Below are positions 880 through 19,826 of a stretch of DNA of 45,040 nt, piece after piece. Source of the DNA: a plasmid. The stretch lies in sequence record NZ_CP133434.1. The stretch is one strand, 5' to 3'. Under the pieces are notes generated by a model, which was not told where the DNA came from, searched no databases, and saw only the letters and a program-made list of their open reading frames with translations. Position 1 is the stretch's first letter, and the number at the start of each line of letters is the position of its first letter. Both the position numbers and the translations under genes were made by a program.

Positions 880-1326
880 ATGGCTAAAATCTATCAATTC
901 CCTCAGGGGGAAGAACGTGCTAAATTCAGGAAAGAAATAGCCAGGGAGCGTAAGAAACGTTTTGCAGTGAAAACAGGGAGCACTTTTGTTAAGTGGCTTG
1001 GCTGGGGATGGTTTTATCTTCGTCTTCTTGTCGCGAGTGTTTTACATTTTATCTTTGTTTTTGTGTTAGCCATTCTTGGTGCGTTTAAATGGGCTGTATT
1101 CTGGCTGGGTAGTATTTTGTGTGTCATCACCTGGTATCATCTCGATCACCAGTTATGGACGCCACAAAATCTGACTATACCGGTGATTACGGCAACCTGG
1201 ATTTTGGGACTGCTGGCTGAGCCTCTGATGGAGCTGCTCAACAAAACTATGCCCTGGCACAAGTTACTTGTTCCCGAACCTGCGGACGAAAGCACCGAGA
1301 ACAGTAGCGAGATAAGCCAGCAATGA
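880..1326 (+). CDS. bis: Bis-like replication auxiliary membrane protein
   Basis: 148-aa ORF 25 nt downstream of pir with an SD (gaggtaact) and hydrophobic core. Its position matches R6K bis. Confidence 0.5.
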   Translation: MAKIYQFPQGEERAKFRKEIARERKKRFAVKTGSTFVKWLGWGWFYLRLLVASVLHFIFVFVLAILGAFKWAVFWLGSILCVITWYHLDHQLWTPQNLTIPVITATWILGLLAEPLMELLNKTMPWHKLLVPEPADESTENSSEISQQ

Positions 1327-1358
1327 TGCTACTCAGCGGTTATGCCAGTCCCTGCCTT

Positions 1359-1472
1359 TTCACTGCGATGCAGGATAGGGCAAACGCCGCAAAATGACGT
1401 CTCTGACGCCATTCCGAAACGTTTGCCCGATGACCTACAGTCGGTTCTTGTTGGAGAGTTTTATGAAATATT
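1359..1472. repeat. Left copy of ~114-bp inverted repeat (candidate ori-beta element), ~93% identical to the reverse complement of 41007-41120
   Basis: Direct base-by-base comparison: ttcactgcgatgcaggatagggcaaacgccgcaaaatgacgtctctgacgccattccg...cagtcggttcttgttggagagttttATG. Confidence 0.8.
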
Positions 1473-4300: not shown

Positions 4301-4325
4301 ACCTTATGTGAACCGGTTCTGTAAT

Positions 4326-4970
4326 ATGACTTCAAATGTACCAACAAGCTTTGTCCGCGCTTATCTGAGAGCTTCAACAGCAGAACAGGATGCTTCGCGT
4401 GCCCTGGAAACTATCGAGGCTTTTGCCAGGGAAAGAGGCCTGATCATTTGCAGCTACTATATTGAGAATGAATCCGGCACCCGTCTTGAGCGCCCGGAAC
4501 TTTTTCGTCTTCTGAGAGATTGCCAACAAAATGACATTTTGCTTATCGAGGATGTGGACAGACTTTCCCGCCTGTCAGGGGAAGACTGGAATACGTTGAA
4601 GAAAATGATCCGGCAGAAAGACATCCGGGTTATGGCGGTGAATGTGCCGACGACATGGATTAATTCTGGTATGAGTGAGTTTGACAGCCGGTTGTTTGCA
4701 GCCATTAACGATATGCTGCTGGATATGCTGGCCGCAGTTGCCAGAAGGGACTATGAACAACGTCGGGAACGCCAGAAACAAGGGATAGAGAAAGCAAGGA
4801 AAGACGGCAAATATAAAGGGCGTAAACCTAATCAAGCCAGACATGATGCAATTATCAGGTTGATAGAAAGCGGTAGCTCCTGGACACAGGTACAGAAAGT
4901 GCTAGGGTGCAGCCGTGGCACAATCAGTAATGCGCTAAAACGTAAAACCGGGCAGAAATCCAGTAAGTAG
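4326..4970 (+). CDS. Serine recombinase (plasmid multimer resolvase)
   Basis: N-terminal VRAYLRASTAEQ, with the catalytic-Ser motif at the position typical of resolvases. A C-terminal HTH is present. The track ORF starts at 4308. Confidence 0.8.
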   Translation: MTSNVPTSFVRAYLRASTAEQDASRALETIEAFARERGLIICSYYIENESGTRLERPELFRLLRDCQQNDILLIEDVDRLSRLSGEDWNTLKKMIRQKDIRVMAVNVPTTWINSGMSEFDSRLFAAINDMLLDMLAAVARRDYEQRRERQKQGIEKARKDGKYKGRKPNQARHDAIIRLIESGSSWTQVQKVLGCSRGTISNALKRKTGQKSSK

Positions 4971-5124
4971 AGGAGTAGGGGGCTAATATACCTGCAAGGC
5001 AGGATATTAACTCAGGAGATTGGGTGTGTGGTGTTTAGTCAATGCATTTGAATATTGTAACTAAAATATGTTTTTATTAAAGGCCGGAGGTGGTTAGCCC
5101 CCGGCCTTAGTTACGTTTCCGCCA

Positions 5125-5208
5125 TCAGCCCATCAACTGGAGAAGGTAGCGAATCAGTTCAAGAAGCGAGATTAGTGCCCCCAGAACGATGATTGCTTTA
5201 TCAATCAT
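5125..5208 (-). CDS. dinQ: DinQ-like type I toxin peptide (27 aa, MIDKAIIVLGALISLLELIRYLLQLMG)
   Basis: Translated by hand from the minus strand. Near-identical to the E. coli DinQ peptide as I recall it. The SD GGAG sits inside the perfect hairpin ctccatataatggag. Confidence 0.6.
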   Translation of the reverse strand: MIDKAIIVLGALISLLELIRYLLQLMG

Positions 5209-5249
5209 CCGTTTACTCCATTATATGGAGCAGACTCCCGATACTTACT

Positions 5250-5375
5250 CTTACACTGCCTGTCATATCGGTTGTTCTTCGGTGTTGGTTGAAGACAGTT
5301 CCACTCCAGCCAGAGCCACCAACTCAGGGCTGGAAAACACAAAAAAGCCCGATTACCCGTCGGGTTTTTTTTGTG
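5250..5375 (+). ncRNA. Candidate agrB-like antisense sRNA ending at a bidirectional terminator (5346-5373)
   Basis: Stem gcccgattacccgtcgggc followed by T8 on the plus strand. The element overlaps the toxin 5' leader and is repeated at 16620-16712. Confidence 0.3.
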
Positions 5376-6019
5376 CCTGTCGTTTGGCTGTACTTCCGTT
5401 TTTTCCCCTTCATTTGAGGGATTTTTCTTTCATTTTTTGTTGCAGCCAGTACCGCTGATCGCGTTGGCCAACAGAACGATGCCGTTACCGGCATTATCAT
5501 GAATCCCATTTTTTCAGTAAGTTGCAGCATACAAAGTAATTAAAAAAACGTCATTTTTTGTTGATGGATGCAGTAGCGGTGGTGTGCTACGTGAAATCTG
5601 GGAAATGCTGGCGGGTAATTGACTCAATTTTTTAATCTCCGCACCTGTTTTTTTGGACGTGCCAGCAATTATGACCTGAAGCAGAGGTGCGTCCGACAAC
5701 AAAAATTCCGATCACCAGAAAAAATTTTGGACATTTTTTCCGATAATGCATTTTTGTCCAGGGGGATATGAACTACAGGGCAGGGCGAAAAGGAAGCGGT
5801 TATCTTGAATATCCATAGGATATGGGCACATATGCCGGAATAGGGCACCAGATAAAGGAAATGAATTCAGTGTATGTTGTAACTAATAGGGTCTGGACAG
5901 AATCATCTGAACGTCCAGTCGGGCGCTAATCTATAATAAATGACCGTAGAAGGGCCATTTCTACGGCAAAGTTCTGGAGATGATAAAATAAGAGCCTTAA
6001 ACAATAAAAGGGTTTGCTT

Positions 6020-7018: not shown

Positions 7019-7891
<873 letters not shown>

Positions 7892-15490: not shown

Positions 15491-15556
15491 AACACCTCCT
15501 TTGTTAAAGGGCAGGAAGCGGTGCACTTCCTGCCCTTAGTTACGTTTCCGCAGTCA

Positions 15557-15652
15557 TCAATCGATGAACTGACGGATCAGTTCCAGAACTGCAATCAGCG
15601 CGTTTGCAAGCGCAGCTACCGCCCTCAGAACGATGATTAACAGGTTAATCAT
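15557..15652 (-). CDS. DinQ/TisB-like type I toxin paralog (31 aa, MINLLIIVLRAVAALANALIAVLELIRQFID)
   Basis: Hand translation. The SD sits inside the hairpin ctccatttatggag, as in module 1. Confidence 0.5.
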   Translation of the reverse strand: MINLLIIVLRAVAALANALIAVLELIRQFID

Positions 15653-15957
15653 CCGTTTTCTCCATAAATGGAGTAAAGACACCGTGGCTTGCTCTTACGC
15701 TGCCTGTCACCACGGCTTCTCTTCGTCTTGTCAGTTGTAGAGAGTCTCACTCCTACCAGAGCACAGATAACCAGCACCACCTGTATTACCTGTCAGGACT
15801 TTGAAGCTGTTCATGCCGCATTTAGCGGAATGCAGGGAAAGACTCACCACAGCACTAACCCTCTGATTATACGTTTATCTAACTTTCAAGCAAACCGTTA
15901 ACGCGTAGTCACCGCCTGTCATATTGCATAATCAGGCTTCACGGATTATCATACTGT

Positions 15958-16050
15958 TGTCAGTTGTAGAGAGTTTCTCTTCCGGGCGAGTTACCAGCTC
16001 GTACCGGAACTGTAAAAAAGCCGACCTCACCAGTCGGTTTTTTTACGTCT
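15958..16050 (+). ncRNA. Candidate agrB-like antisense sRNA (second of two tandem repeats) with terminator
   Basis: Repeat unit beginning gtcagttgtagagagt (also at 15730). Terminator ccgacctcaccagtcgg plus T7 at 16018-16048. Confidence 0.3.
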
Positions 16051-16212
16051 GCAGTTTCCCGCTTCATTTAGATCTATTTTAAATGAATAAATTTTCTGCG
16101 GCAAACCCAACGACGTTGGGTCGTTAGTGTAAATAATTGTTCAAAACTCATAAACACTCCTTTGTTAAAGGGCAGGAAGCGGTAAACGTCTCTCCCTTAG
16201 TTAAGCCATCAA

Positions 16213-16296
16213 TCACTCGATTAGTTTCTGAATGGCAATCAGCGCGTTTGCAATGGCGAGCACAGCCCTGAGAACGATGATTAACAGATTCATCAT
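16213..16296 (-). CDS. DinQ-like type I toxin paralog (27 aa, MMNLLIIVLRAVLAIANALIAIQKLIE)
   Basis: Hand translation. No SD hairpin is recognisable, so this copy is possibly degenerate. Confidence 0.4.
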   Translation of the reverse strand: MMNLLIIVLRAVLAIANALIAIQKLIE

Positions 16297-16614
16297 CCGT
16301 TTCTCTAGGTTGATACTGGAGGAAGTCACCGTAGCTTGCTCATACATCCCTGTCACAACGGCTCTCTCACATTGTTGGATGTAGAGTACCTTCCCTCTAC
16401 CAGAGCACTGAACACAGCACCACCCGTTTGTTCAGCCAGGACTTTAATTCGTTCATCCCCAGATAGCGCAGGGGTTAGAAGCAAGGGAGACACACTGTAC
16501 AGCGCCAACACAAAGATTATACAGATGCATGCATAAAATTCATTTAAAGAAATTACCATTGACAGACAATCTGAAGTCAAACTAGACAACAGGTGTCTAG
16601 TGCCATAATACTAT

Positions 16615-16712
16615 GAGTGTTGGGTGTAGAGTATCTTCCTCCAGTCAGAGCCACCAACTCAAGGCTGGAAAACACAAAAAAGCCAAATTACCAGTCGGTT
16701 TTTTTTGTGCTT
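16615..16712 (+). ncRNA. Candidate agrB-like antisense sRNA, a copy of the 5281-5375 element
   Basis: ~85% identical to 5281-5375. Preceded by TAGACA...CATAAT promoter-like hexamers flanking the palindrome ctagacaacaggtgtctag. Confidence 0.3.
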
Positions 16713-16916
16713 GTCGTTCAGCTGTACTTCCGTTTTTTCCCCCTTCATTGAAGAAGTAGTAGGCAGAGCAGAAATGACTTCATGAATTATTTTTATAGAC
16801 CGTCCTGTAAAAGTTTAAGTCATAAAGCCATGCAGAATGCTCACCTCCCAAGATCTTGGTTTTTATAAGGTGTAATGATAATGTAAGCTAATGTTTCACA
16901 TACCAAAGGAAATACC

Positions 16917-18245
16917 ATGAGCCGCAGGGAATTGTTCAGCGAATTTCTTGAAAATTTGAATCTTGACCTTAAACAGGCAAAAAAGATCAGCTATCACTAT
17001 CGAAAAATAACCAAGTCATTAAATCTTGCGTTCAGAGGAACGAGTTCCCGGGTAGCAAACCGCTTGAAAGTGGGGTCAGTAGGCAGACATACTGCAATAA
17101 AAGGCATATCCGATCTGGACATGCTTTATATTATGCCCCCCAATCAGTATGAATATTATAACCGTAAGGATAATGGTCAGGCTGCATTGCTTACAGATGT
17201 CAGAAACATTTTAGCGGAAGAATATCCTGACCAGACGGTGAAAAAGGACAGACTGGTTGTTCAGATCATCTTTAAAAACTTTTATGTCGAGGTTCAACCT
17301 GTATTCAGACAGGATGATGGCAGCTTTAAATTCCCTGAAAGCTATAATGGGGGAGCATGGCGCATTACAAAACCTCTTCACGAAAAGGCGGCTATGACCG
17401 CATTTTCGCGAGATAAATCCAATAATCTGCGCAAGCTGTGTAAAATGATCAGAGCCTGGAAGAACCTGCATGGCGTCAATATGGGGGGCTTACTGATAGA
17501 TACACTGGCGTATCGATTTCTTTCATCAACATCAGATTATGACAATACCGGAAATGGCAGCCTGGGAGCCCTCGCCAGAGACTTTTTTGAATATCTGTCA
17601 AATGAGGAGAAAAGGGAAAGGTATCTCGCGTTAGGCAGTAATCAGTATGTACGTGTTAAATCTCCCTGGTTTGGCCGGGCAGCGAAACATGCGTATGAAT
17701 TATGTTGTGATGCCTTAGACGCTGAGGGGTCTGCCAGTGAAAATGACCTCTGGCGCGAAGTGTTCGGACGAGCCTTCCCCAGACGTAAGGTGGGTATTAT
17801 GGAAGCCAGCCTTGGTCTGGAATCGCATGCGGCAGATGCAGCTCCCTGGATCGATACCGAAGAATTTATAGAGGATAAATATCCGGTGGATATCAGGCAC
17901 TCACTCAACCTTGACTGTACCGTAACCCAAGATGGTTTCCCTCCCAGAAGCCTGAGAGAGATGCTTACTAGAGGATTTCGCCTCTCCGCTCGGAAATCTC
18001 TCCTTTTCCGGGCAGACTTGACAGAAATGGAGGCAGAGGAACCCTACACCGTTATGTGGAAGGTACTGAACGTGGGTGACGAAGCACGCAGAAGAAATAT
18101 GATCCGGGGACAAATCGTTTCGGACGGCGGCTACTGTACAAAGAAAGAGGCCACCGACTTCCGCGGAGATCACGTGGTAGAATGCTATGTGATAAAAAAT
18201 GAGGTTGTGGTTGCCCGGGCCCAGATTGAAGTTCCCATAAACTGA
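16917..18245 (+). CDS. SMODS / CD-NTase-like nucleotidyltransferase (CBASS-type cyclase) with a C-terminal extension
   Basis: Pol-beta NTase signature GSVGRHTAIKGISDLDMLYIM (GS...DxD). Third acidic motif at VEVQP. SD aagga. AT-rich upstream region. Confidence 0.6.
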   Translation: MSRRELFSEFLENLNLDLKQAKKISYHYRKITKSLNLAFRGTSSRVANRLKVGSVGRHTAIKGISDLDMLYIMPPNQYEYYNRKDNGQAALLTDVRNILAEEYPDQTVKKDRLVVQIIFKNFYVEVQPVFRQDDGSFKFPESYNGGAWRITKPLHEKAAMTAFSRDKSNNLRKLCKMIRAWKNLHGVNMGGLLIDTLAYRFLSSTSDYDNTGNGSLGALARDFFEYLSNEEKRERYLALGSNQYVRVKSPWFGRAAKHAYELCCDALDAEGSASENDLWREVFGRAFPRRKVGIMEASLGLESHAADAAPWIDTEEFIEDKYPVDIRHSLNLDCTVTQDGFPPRSLREMLTRGFRLSARKSLLFRADLTEMEAEEPYTVMWKVLNVGDEARRRNMIRGQIVSDGGYCTKKEATDFRGDHVVECYVIKNEVVVARAQIEVPIN

Positions 18246-18252
18246 GGTTTTT

Positions 18253-18828
18253 ATGACGCAATCAGAGATGCTGAAATTAATTGCCAGACATGGTTATAAC
18301 GTTGGATTTGGCGCTAAGAAAAACTTTGCCACCTATGATCTAATTTGTAAGGCATCCGGTTGGATTAGCTTTATTTCTCTTGCTGTCGGTGTGTTCGCTC
18401 TTTTTATTCCTGAGCTAGCCACAAACGTAATTTCCGCGATATTAATTATATTTGGTGTTGCTACAATGTACATTCAGTTTTATGACTCGGAAAAGCAGAG
18501 TTATGAAAGTGCGGGGATTGAGCAGACAAAAATTTTTAATGAACTTGAAGTTATTTACCGCAACGTAAAAAGCGATGCAAACTTTGACTATCAGCATACA
18601 CAACAATCCATCGACGCTATCATGTCCCGGTTTTACGGCACGGTCATCAGCAAACAGATCTTCGGAAGTAACTGGTACGCACATTATAAATTTTACTGTG
18701 AATTTGAGAAAGCATGGGTTGAAGAAGAACTAAACTTGACACTGAAGGACAAAATCCCGCTTTCGCTCTGCTTTCTCGCCGGTCTGGCAATCATTTTCAT
18801 TATAGCTGTCATCTGGAAAATGCTCTGA
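18253..18828 (+). CDS. 2TM plus C-terminal TM membrane effector (SLATT-like), partner of the SMODS gene
   Basis: Follows the NTase after a 7-nt gap. Hydrophobic helices at residues ~36-77 and 168-188. Confidence 0.5.
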   Translation: MTQSEMLKLIARHGYNVGFGAKKNFATYDLICKASGWISFISLAVGVFALFIPELATNVISAILIIFGVATMYIQFYDSEKQSYESAGIEQTKIFNELEVIYRNVKSDANFDYQHTQQSIDAIMSRFYGTVISKQIFGSNWYAHYKFYCEFEKAWVEEELNLTLKDKIPLSLCFLAGLAIIFIIAVIWKML

Positions 18829-19001
18829 TGCTGCAGCCGATGAAAAATTAAGCAAGCTGACTGGCAAATATGCGATGTATAACCGGTATCATTATCCAGT
18901 GTACGTTCTATAAGGGGTGAGTTTGGATATGAGCTATAAATCTAATAAAAAGGCAGGGGGAAAAGATAGGATTTTTCACGTAGTCTCCGATAAAGTGACT
19001 A

Positions 19002-19826
19002 TTGATATTTAGCAATGAACATAAGGAAGGTACTGTGGGAACAACAAAAGATTGGGTTATACAAGTCGAGGAAAGTCGCCGTGAGGAATGGATACGAGAG
19101 CGGCTTTCCAGCCCAGATCTTGAGGAAGATTCTGAAGAATGGCAGTTACTTGAAAAGGACTATGACGAGTATCAGGATTTTCTTTCTGATATGGCTATGG
19201 AAGAATATGAAACCGAAAAATGGTTAAAACAGCATCCACATACAGAAATTTATAAAATAGCAATAAACCTTTTAGAACAAATAAAAGAAGAGGGAAAACA
19301 ATCTACAAGTGAAGTTTTCATAAAAATGAAAATCGCATACATTGTGACAATAATGGAAAACTGTCTTAGCGAAATGATTAAAAGCGTTGTATTGTCACAT
19401 AACAGATATGTAGAAAATGCCATAAGAAACATAAATGAACTGAAAGCAAAGAATATCTCTCTGTCTGAATTGATAAATAAAGAGTCTAATGCAAACAAAT
19501 ATGTACAGGAGTACCTTTCAGATATTCTTTATCATAGAATCCAACTGGTAGTTGAAATATATAAAGCAGTCCTGCAACCTAAGCAATATCCACGTTTTCC
19601 ACTCAAAAATATCAATGAATTGATGAAACTGAGGCATGACATAGTTCATCGTAACGGGAAAACGAAAACAACGGATGAAAAGATACATACATTCAATACA
19701 GCTACGCTCAATGATGCGTTTAAAGTTGTAGAGGAGTTTCTTAATAACATGATGAATTTGATCAGTGATGCTGTTGAGCATCATGAGAATGAGCAGATAG
19801 CCAGAGATCTTGAAGACGAGTTTTGA
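19002..19826 (+). CDS. HEPN-motif protein A (acidic N-terminal region, C-terminal Rx4H)
   Basis: C-terminal KLRHDIVHRNG. A likely start is GTG 19032, which follows aaggaagg. AT-rich. Confidence 0.45.
   Translation: MIFSNEHKEGTVGTTKDWVIQVEESRREEWIRERLSSPDLEEDSEEWQLLEKDYDEYQDFLSDMAMEEYETEKWLKQHPHTEIYKIAINLLEQIKEEGKQSTSEVFIKMKIAYIVTIMENCLSEMIKSVVLSHNRYVENAIRNINELKAKNISLSELINKESNANKYVQEYLSDILYHRIQLVVEIYKAVLQPKQYPRFPLKNINELMKLRHDIVHRNGKTKTTDEKIHTFNTATLNDAFKVVEEFLNNMMNLISDAVEHHENEQIARDLEDEF

Follow-up and report, generated by a model that had tools for sequence, protein, structure and literature searches.

The best described relative of the locus analysed here is dinQ-agrAB of Escherichia coli K-12 (Weel-Sneve 2013, PMC3567139; Kristiansen 2016, PMC5066626), which encodes a 27-aa single-helix toxin and two agr copies, agrA and agrB. 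It has a hairpin that sequesters the Shine-Dalgarno (SD) sequence and is designated 3:4 in the experimental model of the dinQ mRNA (PMC5066626), a 33-nt antisense target located 77 to 109 nt upstream of the start codon, an AgrB stem-loop with a terminator, and a separate terminator of the toxin transcript. The presence of dinQ-like (dql) genes on natural plasmids was described in 2016 (PMC5066626), and in 2025 the DqlB-AgrB modules of two conjugative enterobacterial plasmids, the IncX3 plasmid pOXA-484 and the IncL plasmid pOXA-48, were reported to combine a toxic DqlB with an AgrB that neutralises it, and to stabilise their plasmids (PMC12317039, PMC12365149). Toxin and agrB are separate, promoter-bearing genes there, and their constitutive promoters lack LexA boxes. 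A DinQ homologue on a plasmid, accompanied by an AgrB-like antitoxin, has thus been annotated and published before and is not new. A further parallel is the hok/sok system of plasmid R1, likewise a plasmid type I addiction module with a small membrane toxin, in which an inert primary transcript is activated by processing and an antisense RNA targets the leader.

The stretch of DNA examined here, referred to below as the window, comprises 45,040 nt of a plasmid (NZ_CP133434.1). An earlier note on this DNA had described it as part of an IncX plasmid, and IncX1 is indeed the type of the plasmids in which the locus recurs in identical or nearly identical form. Each sequence feature given in that note was found where the note places it. 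The locus (Table 1) shares with K-12 dinQ-agrAB all the traits listed above except the two agr copies, including the distance of the antisense target from the start codon. It differs in that the plasmid ORF starts with ATG, the K-12 one with GTG; the LexA operator is missing from the plasmid; the intact plasmid allele has a single agr copy; and the window lacks the promoters and leader nucleotides ~1 to 90 (with element 1), its target repeat being fused to the agrB tail. The separately expressed toxin and agrB genes of pOXA-484 and pOXA-48 have no counterpart at the dinQ locus, although two other loci in the window (loci 2 and 3) belong to the DqlB group. The sequences of hok/sok are unrelated, and Sok is encoded in cis, overlapping the leader and having its own promoter inside it, whereas the overlap in the window derives from a deletion and has no evident promoter.

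The new point is that the dinQ-agrB copy in the window is, to judge from its sequence, broken. We consider it, with a probability of about 0.7, to be a silent, promoterless derivative of an IncX1 dinQ-agrB type I toxin-antitoxin (TA) module that has collapsed through recombination. No prior description of such a collapse was found in the literature, many subscription-journal papers being beyond the reach of the search, which also returned nothing on IncX1 dinQ and nothing relevant on dinQ in connection with agrA or phylogroup.

Table 1. Features of the dinQ-agrB locus and of the two dqlB-agrB loci in the window
Feature	Position	Strand	Evidence
Rho-independent-type terminator hairpin of toxin transcript, AAAGGCCGGAGG...CCCCCGGCCTT	5079..5108	-	Sequence; position as in chromosomal dinQ and intact plasmid alleles
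Type I toxin ORF of the DinQ family, MIDKAIIVLGALISLLELIRYLLQLMG (27 aa and stop codon)	5125..5208	-	NCBIfam NF041472; 23/27 identity to K-12 DinQ
Proximal toxin 5' UTR, retained, from antisense target to ATG	5209..5284	-	Matches L003 (pHNAH968-4); homologous to K-12 dinQ leader
SD-sequestering hairpin, elements 3:4 of dinQ model, CUCCAU-AUA-AUGGAG in mRNA sense	5230..5216	-	Sequence
Chimeric AgrB-homologous element	5285..5372	+	Rfam RF02891; promoter region absent
33-nt agr repeat, antisense target (element 2 region), UTR variant fused 3' to agrB tail	5285..5317	.	Alignment A1, repeat comparison
AgrB terminator hairpin, A-run before, T-run after	5341..5372	.	Terminator stem of Rfam AgrB match
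Flank 3' of agrB, homologous to flank after AgrB-3 (16708-16750)	5373..5420	+	Sequences, alignment A1
Intact DqlB toxin gene, locus 2, MINLLIIVLRAVAALANALIAVLELIRQFID	15557..15652	-	NF041473, 72.2 bits (cutoff 35)
AgrB-2, separate antitoxin gene, own promoter TTGCAT-17-TATCAT	15960..16046	+	Rfam, 56.1 bits
Intact DqlB-like toxin gene, locus 3, MMNLLIIVLRAVLAIANALIAIQKLIE	16213..16296	-	NF041473, 42.0 bits (cutoff 35)
AgrB-3, separate antitoxin gene, own promoter TAGACA, then CATAAT or AATACT	16620..16707	+	Rfam, 51.8 bits

Toxin gene and retained leader

The minus-strand toxin ORF is present where the earlier note had placed it (5208-5125) and encodes the peptide given there. This peptide scores 55.5 bits against the NCBIfam model NF041472 (toxin_DinQ; cutoff, 30 bits; E=4.9e-15), compared with 54.0 bits for K-12 DinQ itself, and only 14.3 bits against the DqlB model NF041473 (cutoff, 35 bits), which assigns it to the DinQ type and not to DqlB. 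The DinQ sequence given in the note proved exactly right when checked against the chromosomal dinQ gene of strain DH1, whose translation, (V/M)IDKAIIVLGALIALLELIRFLLQLLN, is identical to the plasmid peptide at 23 of 27 positions (the differences are A14S, F21Y, L26M, and N27G); by the NF041472 score, this similarity is above chance. The short single hydrophobic helix with the signature residues of the family, judged here on the full-length identity to K-12 DinQ, is found in the 27-aa peptide, and identical DNA carries the RefSeq/PGAP name dinQ (WP_000565612.1). By profile and alignment, then, the peptide is a DinQ family member. The terminator downstream of the ORF, a part of the dinQ/dql architecture, is homologous to those of K-12 and the intact alleles.

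The SD sequence GGAG (5219..5216) lies 7 nt ahead of the ATG and, in line with the earlier description, inside a perfect hairpin (CTCCAT-ATA-ATGGAG in mRNA sense), which corresponds to the conserved hairpin 3:4 in the published model. K-12 dinQ, the plasmid dinQ alleles that are intact, and locus 2 of the window all keep its 6-bp stem (alignment A2), and the pair probabilities are about 1.0 (ViennaRNA). Of the four leader elements that engage in the alternative pairings 1:2, 2:3, and 3:4, the window retains elements 2, 3, and 4; element 1 (K-12 U16-C28; ACUCCAGCC in pHNAH968-4) falls within the deleted 187 bp described below. When the +1, processed, and read-through transcripts were folded, the SD hairpin was predicted to be closed in every plasmid variant, and a shift (0.87 to 0.68) was seen in the K-12 control alone, so that folding cannot separate active from inert forms.

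AgrB-like element and its terminator

The match to the Rfam AgrB family (RF02891) at 5285-5372 on the plus strand has a score of 70.6 bits (gathering score, 40; whole-window E=4e-10) and spans model positions 1 to 84 of 84; below the gathering score, the sole other Rfam match was a Brucella sRNA at chance level (E=0.55). The 5' 32 nt of the element are those of the toxin UTR repeat, and its 3' stem-loop and terminator are those of agrB. Within the 33-nt repeat, positions 12, 18, 19, and 26 carry UTR-type bases and position 33 an agrB-type base. Complementarity of ~33 nt to the toxin leader is an expected property of an AgrB antitoxin, but here it is perfect in a trivial way, being the same repeat read on the opposite strand. 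The element starts 77 nt from the toxin ATG, within what the intact alleles use as the toxin 5' UTR. The agrB-like antisense element of the earlier note thus holds up as an AgrB homologue but not as a separate gene upstream of the toxin unit. The bidirectional terminator suggested in the same place was found as a hairpin with a flanking A-run and T-run. The terminator scanner placed it on the minus strand and called the homologous site of pHNAH968-4 on both strands; as a predicted structure, it can terminate in both directions. It sits directly upstream of the truncated toxin leader.

Collapse through a 187-bp deletion

Two intact IncX1 alleles, in pHNAH968-4 (L003, NZ_CP104623.1) and in S. 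Typhi pK43 (L008, NZ_CP029854.1), share the ParA-resolvase-dinQ context with the window and contain 187 bp more, located between the UTR repeat and a separate agrB. The intact IncX1 allele has the identical peptide, an identical toxin half (in pHNAH968-4), and the same ParA/ParG-resolvase neighbourhood. From the terminator to the start of the repeat, the window and pHNAH968-4 have 0 differences in 206 nt. Recombination took place between the 33-nt repeat that forms the antisense target within the toxin 5' UTR and its counterpart at the 5' end of agrB, with CAGAGC (5311-5316) as the crossover interval. Both promoters, that of the toxin and that of agrB, lie in the deleted segment, together with ~90 nt from the start of the toxin leader, the conserved leader block AAAGTCCTGG...GGTGGTGC, and agrB's own 5' end. 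Chromosomal dinQ has the intact layout as well, and so does the IncX7 plasmid pJARS35 of Y. pestis, which is about 85% identical; the intact state is therefore ancestral. The opposite course, the intact form arising from the collapsed one by insertion, was rejected because chromosomal dinQ and the dqlB loci have sequence homologous to the 187 bp in their promoter and leader region.

In the intact module, a TATAAT promoter starts the toxin mRNA about 195 nt upstream of the ATG. The agrB promoter points the other way and has its -35 element in common with that of the toxin, as a palindrome (TTGCAT/ATGCAA). The first ~33 nt of AgrB repeat a stretch of the leader in the same DNA orientation, making AgrB antisense to the toxin leader. 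The two promoters are flanked by these direct repeats, and one crossover or slippage event between the repeats deletes the 187 bp and, with them, the element 1 lock of the toxin leader. The window still has the intact toxin ORF, the SD hairpin, and the toxin terminator; of the leader it has a truncated version, and of AgrB a chimeric look-alike with the agrB terminator at its end. As neither RNA would have a promoter of its own and the agrB terminator would shield the toxin from upstream minus-strand transcription, the locus should be silent, and the collapsed allele would be tolerated because expression of toxin and antitoxin was lost in a single step. Most likely, the window locus is transcriptionally silent and has lost its addiction function; these two points are inferred, whereas the homology, the deletion with its breakpoints and recurrence, and the absence of the homologous promoters are shown.

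Promoter search

A GTATAAT -10 element (GTATGAT in K-12) is conserved among the plasmid loci and is spaced for a leader of ~195 nt as in K-12; the K-12 coordinates used here reproduce the published G184-G187 position of the SD. The window lacks this GTATAAT (columns 301-309 of alignment A2) and the region between it and the repeat, and with it the sigma-70 promoter for a ~190-nt leader. The agrB promoter of the intact alleles (TTGCAT-17-TATTAT) is deleted too, the position homologous to its -10 element reading TTGTTC (a 1/6 match), and the sequence at 5285-5372 is not a separate agrB gene with a divergent promoter of its own. A relaxed promoter scan, calibrated on intact loci, found at the window locus neither of the homologous promoters and no equivalent. 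In the same scan, the homologous promoters came first for the intact IncX1 alleles and for locus 2 of the window, and near the top for the remaining intact loci. A strict promoter scanner also reported none at the window locus but missed the promoters of the intact alleles as well, which makes it uninformative. The apparent lack of a promoter rests on homology and consensus matching, both of which are fallible. A perfect TATAAT is found within the loop of the SD hairpin (5225..5220), with a -35 match of only 2/6, and the same hexamer occurs in the intact alleles; it could in principle drive a near-leaderless transcript.

Recurrence of the collapsed allele

The window and one other plasmid (L006) keep the UTR variant of the repeat, and four plasmids (L004, L009, L014, and L015) keep the agrB variant; the retention of different variants implies different crossover points. 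The PLSDB database contains 200 records with the window-type junction and an estimated 30 or so with the other one (a collapsed total of about 230), compared with 89 to 90 intact records, and about 70% of the IncX1-type dinQ loci classified there are collapsed. Chromosomal dinQ has collapsed likewise in strains 8178 and Ecol_743. For the exact chromosomal junction, 849 records fall in the band of at least 99% identity, and 4 of 24 evenly spaced rows are full-length matches; collapsed dinQ is estimated to occur in roughly 15% of complete E. coli genomes. Counting at a coverage of at least 80% failed for the second plasmid junction and the chromosomal one because intact agr copies align at 80 to 82%, and the figures for both are estimates from identity bands and evenly spaced rows.

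Several collapsed alleles carry changes in the toxin gene: a frameshift in the ORF of L004, an otherwise complete conjugative plasmid; I2L together with a deletion in the SD-hairpin loop in L009; and an L-to-Q change in the membrane helix in Ecol_743. These are anecdotal hints of relaxed constraint. Most collapsed plasmids examined (the window, L001, L006, L013, L014, and L015) encode the identical peptide in an intact ORF, and most collapsed PLSDB rows examined bear a dinQ annotation; such a conserved ORF would look the same if function were maintained. Each collapsed allele, though, is 0 to 2 substitutions away from an intact allele across the toxin half, which leaves little time for decay.

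The excess of collapsed over intact alleles could reflect selection for something besides loss. A tentative proposal, to which we give slightly less than even odds, is that the collapse goes beyond incidental decay and is a built-in, recurrent, one-step way of safely disarming DinQ/AgrB-type modules. The leader target and the antitoxin 5' end form direct repeats bracketing both promoters, so that one short-homology deletion would silence toxin and antitoxin together, freeing the replicon without killing the host. If true, this would explain the excess of about 230 collapsed over about 90 intact records, the at least two crossover points, and the roughly 15% collapse on chromosomes. In a bolder version, read-through transcription of the AgrB-like sequence would protect against the intact modules of competing plasmids, and the remnant would be retained for that reason.

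Possible functions of the remnant

According to the earlier note, the locus could act as a post-segregational-killing or stress module. In this reading, it would be an active type I TA system, with a plus-strand AgrB-like sRNA ending at 5372 that represses the minus-strand toxin mRNA. The intact state of the ORF, SD hairpin, terminator, and AgrB-homologous element speaks for such a module, as do the proven addiction function of its family relatives (PMC12317039, PMC12365149), the conservation of the peptide in most collapsed copies, and the fact that the collapsed form is the commonest allele. However, the missing 187 bp held both homologous promoters and the ~90-nt leader segment needed for the inert +1 conformation, neither strand offers a comparable promoter candidate at the required positions, the agrB terminator immediately precedes the truncated leader, and the frameshifted copy resides in an otherwise complete conjugative plasmid (L004). 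Moreover, loss of the antitoxin promoter alone would be lethal, so the survival of the window allele suggests that the toxin is not expressed either. An active module is therefore unlikely, and we regard a true cis-overlapping antisense pair like hok/sok as equally doubtful. The proposed SOS link, according to which the plasmid would carry an SOS-inducible stress module like chromosomal dinQ, draws on the dinQ name and on the similarity to the chromosomal gene, which LexA regulates and whose peptide is 85% identical. A search for LexA boxes (CTGT-N8-ACAG with at most 1 mismatch) detected none in 5000-5700, upstream of the toxin or elsewhere in that interval, and the 20 LexA-like matches in the whole window are at chance level (13.5 expected). 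In alignment A2, CTGTATGATTATCCAG covers the -10 element in the K-12 copy only; the intact plasmid alleles have CGTATAAT, with a plain TATAAT and without the CAG half-site, and the deletion has removed this promoter region from the window altogether. LexA control of this locus is already refuted at the sequence level, and an SOS module of this kind is highly improbable.

Another possibility, although quite an unlikely one, is co-option of the remnant. Transcription that runs on from the plus-strand resolvase gene (4308-4970) as far as the agrB terminator would yield a long RNA, antisense to the toxin gene over its full length and with an AgrB-like sequence in it. This RNA could provide the 3' end of the resolvase transcript, and it could also be an "anti-addiction" RNA, neutralising the DinQ mRNAs of competing IncX1 plasmids that have intact modules. 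In favour of this, the terminator scan called nothing on the plus strand from the resolvase stop codon up to the agrB terminator, collapsed alleles are common, and the pairing of the chimeric element to the leader of pHNAH968-4 is the strongest predicted (-75.8 kcal/mol by RNAduplex, compared with -63.3 kcal/mol for that plasmid's own AgrB). Nevertheless, co-option is a matter of inference, the hairpin of the toxin terminator (5079-5108) may still halt plus-strand transcription, and intact alleles would have equal read-through. Simple loss is also suggested by the fact that chromosomal dinQ, which faces no competition among plasmids, has collapsed in parallel.

Implications for annotation

A remnant that appears to be promoterless is labelled "dinQ" by PGAP and "AgrB" by Rfam, and surveys of TA systems that count gene or HMM matches would therefore overcount working modules; the published figure of 53% of IncX plasmids with dqlB homologues is an example of such counts. 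Anyone studying the part of DinQ in SOS or persistence phenotypes should determine the allele present in the strain used. The geometry of the repeats points to a general way in which type I modules that act in trans may be lost while the host survives.

Intact dqlB-agrB modules in the window

Loci 2 and 3, at 15.5 to 16.7 kb, both keep the full leader, with TATAAT -10 elements at about 15871..15866 and 16521..16516, respectively, and their toxin genes are annotated by PGAP as dqlB in pYU39_IncX. The best duplex energy of AgrB-2 and of AgrB-3 is in each case that with the cognate leader. These two intact modules are a more likely source of plasmid addiction than the collapsed dinQ locus. One of the LexA-like sites of the window (15781-15796) lies within the leader of locus 2 rather than at its promoter.

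The dinQ locus of the window

The minus-strand ORF of this locus encodes a peptide identical at 23 of 27 residues to the translated DinQ of the Escherichia coli DH1 chromosome, (V/M)IDKAIIVLGALIALLELIRFLLQLLN, and scores 55.5 bits with the NCBIfam DinQ equivalog model (cutoff of 30, E = 4.9e-15); its 14.3 bits with NF041473, the sister DqlB model, fall short of the cutoff of 35. The homology to DinQ proposed in the earlier note is confirmed, and the DinQ sequence given there agrees with the DH1 gene. The note's other two structural claims, an SD buried in a perfect hairpin and an AgrB-like plus-strand element ending at a terminator-like hairpin, also hold (see the table). The AgrB match ends in a hairpin flanked by an A-run and a T-run and starts 77 nt from the toxin ATG, the site of the leader-embedded repeat in other loci. 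The family assignment is correct and the element is real. A plus-strand 89-aa ORF (5189-5458) overlaps both the AgrB remnant and the toxin gene; related plasmids list their counterparts of it as "hypothetical protein" (e.g., WP_178379224.1, WP_162758319.1, and WP_053273090.1), and the call, made over the RNA locus, is almost certainly spurious.

Plasmids with an identical copy of the locus, or nearly so, are typed IncX1. In two plasmids, pVE-V11-M_3 of E. coli and pYU39_IncX of Salmonella, RefSeq already gives identical DNA the annotation "dinQ: damage-inducible type I toxin DinQ" (WP_000565612.1). The dinQ-like (dql) family, defined by Kristiansen et al. in 2016 on Enterobacteriaceae chromosomes and natural plasmids, is conserved in its promoters, leaders, and SD hairpins (PMC5066626). 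Plasmid DqlB, studied in 2025 on IncX3 pOXA-484 and IncL pOXA-48, is toxic and is neutralized by AgrB, the locus stabilizing plasmids or killing on plasmid loss (PMC12317039, PMC12365149); according to one of these papers, 53% of IncX plasmids carry dqlB homologs. The system is therefore of a kind already annotated and published. All that is new is that antisense target and antitoxin repeat have repeatedly collapsed into each other; a literature search found no earlier description of this collapse, which is important chiefly for annotation and toxin-antitoxin censuses.

Positions of the features discussed
Feature	Position	Strand	Details
DinQ toxin ORF	5208..5125	minus	translation MIDKAIIVLGALISLLELIRYLLQLMG
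SD (GGAG)	5219..5216	minus	3' arm of CUCCAU-AUA-AUGGAG, perfect 6-bp stem; ATG 7 nt on
AgrB match, full-length	5285-5372	plus	Rfam 70.6 bits (gathering score 40)
DqlB toxin, locus 2	15652..15557	minus	NF041473 72.2 bits
AgrB gene, locus 2	15960-16046	plus	Rfam 56.1 bits
DqlB toxin, locus 3	16296..16213	minus	NF041473 42.0 bits (cutoff 35), marginal
AgrB gene, locus 3	16620-16707	plus	Rfam 51.8 bits
Shared palindromic -35 (TTGCAT/ATGCAA)	pHNAH968-4 (L003) 1897-1902; homologous sites in pK43 (L008) and window 15924-15929	both
Collapsed chromosomal dinQ	NZ_CP151934.1 (L010) 1221-1464; NZ_CP015069.1 (L011) 1221-1464		compared with UTI89 (L012) and DH1 (L002)

A 187-bp deletion between agr repeats

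The IncX1 plasmid pHNAH968-4 has the same ParA-resolvase-dinQ context and an identical peptide and carries 187 bp more at this locus. When the two are aligned, the window is equal to pHNAH968-4 apart from a missing block, which opens where the leader repeat ends and closes where the agrB repeat ends. The remaining repeat is the leader variant at all 4 positions where the two copies differ, and the window turns to agrB sequence after CAGAGC (5311-5316). A second intact allele is found in Salmonella Typhi pK43, and Yersinia pestis pJARS35 (IncX7, ∼85% identical) is likewise intact. Lost with the block are the toxin -10, which the plasmid loci conserve as GTATAAT and which reads GTATGAT in K-12; a leader stretch that is also conserved, AAAGTCCTGG...GGTGGTGC; the published switch's "element 1" (K-12, UUUUCACUCUGGC; pHNAH968-4, ACUCCAGCC); and the agrB promoter.

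In a promoter scan with relaxed settings, intact IncX1 alleles gave ATGCAA-17-TATAAT for the toxin and TTGCAT-17-TATTAT for agrB, back to back over one palindromic -35, so that the two may compete for RNA polymerase. This homologous pair comprised the top candidates in pHNAH968-4, pK43, and locus 2 of the window and was among the leading ones in the remaining intact loci; neither promoter was found at the window dinQ locus by the same scan. The sole good -10 there is the TATAAT of the SD-hairpin loop, a hexamer also present in intact alleles, with a 2/6 match at -35 and ∼5 nt from the ATG. For the window copy, the best description is a deletion derivative that lacks promoters. A tyrosine-recombinase pseudogene fragment at 5586-5699 (minus strand), annotated in the near-identical pVE-V11-M_3 (identical over the region compared), indicates other rearrangement scars beside the remnant.

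Recurrence of the collapse

In a second collapsed type, represented by the plasmid alleles L004, L009, L014, and L015, which derive from a pK43-like allele, the agrB variant of the repeat is retained, indicating a crossover at its other end; allele L006 combines a junction of the window type with an agrB tail that has diverged further. PLSDB holds 89-90 records of the intact form, 200 with the window-type junction, and about 30 with the second, a figure estimated from 12 rows spaced evenly through 115, of which 3 had it. In many plasmids with a collapsed dinQ, the record contains an additional AgrB-like match; most intact-allele plasmids have only one. Collapse may be linked to carriage of extra dqlB-agrB loci, through redundancy or cross-reactivity of AgrB-3, the antitoxin of locus 3.

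E. coli chromosomal dinQ loci, whose K-12 coordinates used here match the published SD (G184-G187) and AgrB target (G88-A119), also differ in repeat number, with 2, 1, or "collapsed" agr repeats: in K-12, agrA and agrB accompany the leader repeat, UTI89 has a single agr gene, and strains 8178 and Ecol_743 have a fully collapsed locus devoid of the LexA box and promoters. A junction-specific query returned 849 records in the band of at least 99% identity, where 4 of 24 evenly spaced rows were full-length 100% matches; by estimate from that band, roughly 15% of 5,426 complete E. coli genomes are collapsed. Among the copies compared, the LexA operator, which lies over the -10, is present only at the chromosomal copy, so the SOS link suggested in the earlier note is not supported.

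Does the remnant still function?

The best reading of the sequence is that the remnant would be non-functional: both homologous promoters are gone, and on the toxin strand the truncated leader is directly preceded by the agrB terminator. Loss of the antitoxin promoter alone should be lethal, and the window allele survives, so the toxin is presumably not expressed either. The frameshifted toxin ORF of L004, the I2L change and 1-nt deletion in the hairpin loop of L009, and the L-to-Q change in the DinQ membrane helix of Ecol_743 are anecdotal signs of relaxed constraint. The identical peptide still encoded by most collapsed copies counts against loss of function; however, the toxin half of every collapsed allele is 0-2 substitutions from an intact one, and so soon after the collapse events, decay would not be expected. 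Any residual toxin expression would be damped twice, as the SD hairpin is predicted to be closed in any possible read-through transcript and AgrB-3 could pair with that of the remnant (RNAduplex, -64 to -88 kcal/mol).

Tandem DqlB-AgrB loci and neighboring genes

The window carries three loci of this family, not one. The other two are complete tandem DqlB-AgrB type I modules (15500-16710), each with promoters and a leader repeat. Their layout is canonical: toxin terminator, ORF, SD hairpin (imperfect in locus 3), a leader with a truncated ∼33-nt agr repeat copy and ∼90 nt more, the toxin -10 (TATAAT), the agrB promoter, and a separate agrB starting with the same repeat. Chromosomal dinQ of E. 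coli shares this layout but has two agr genes. These modules are likely the functional addiction modules of the plasmid.

Directly beyond them lie three plus-strand ORFs (16917-19826), whose counterparts in pYU39_IncX are annotated as nucleotidyltransferase, SLATT-domain, and HEPN-domain proteins; the trio looks like a defense system. A TEM-type beta-lactamase gene (7019-7879, minus strand) is absent from the otherwise colinear pVE-V11-M_3; an 11-residue stretch of its product suggests a TEM-135-like enzyme with M182T, not TEM-1.
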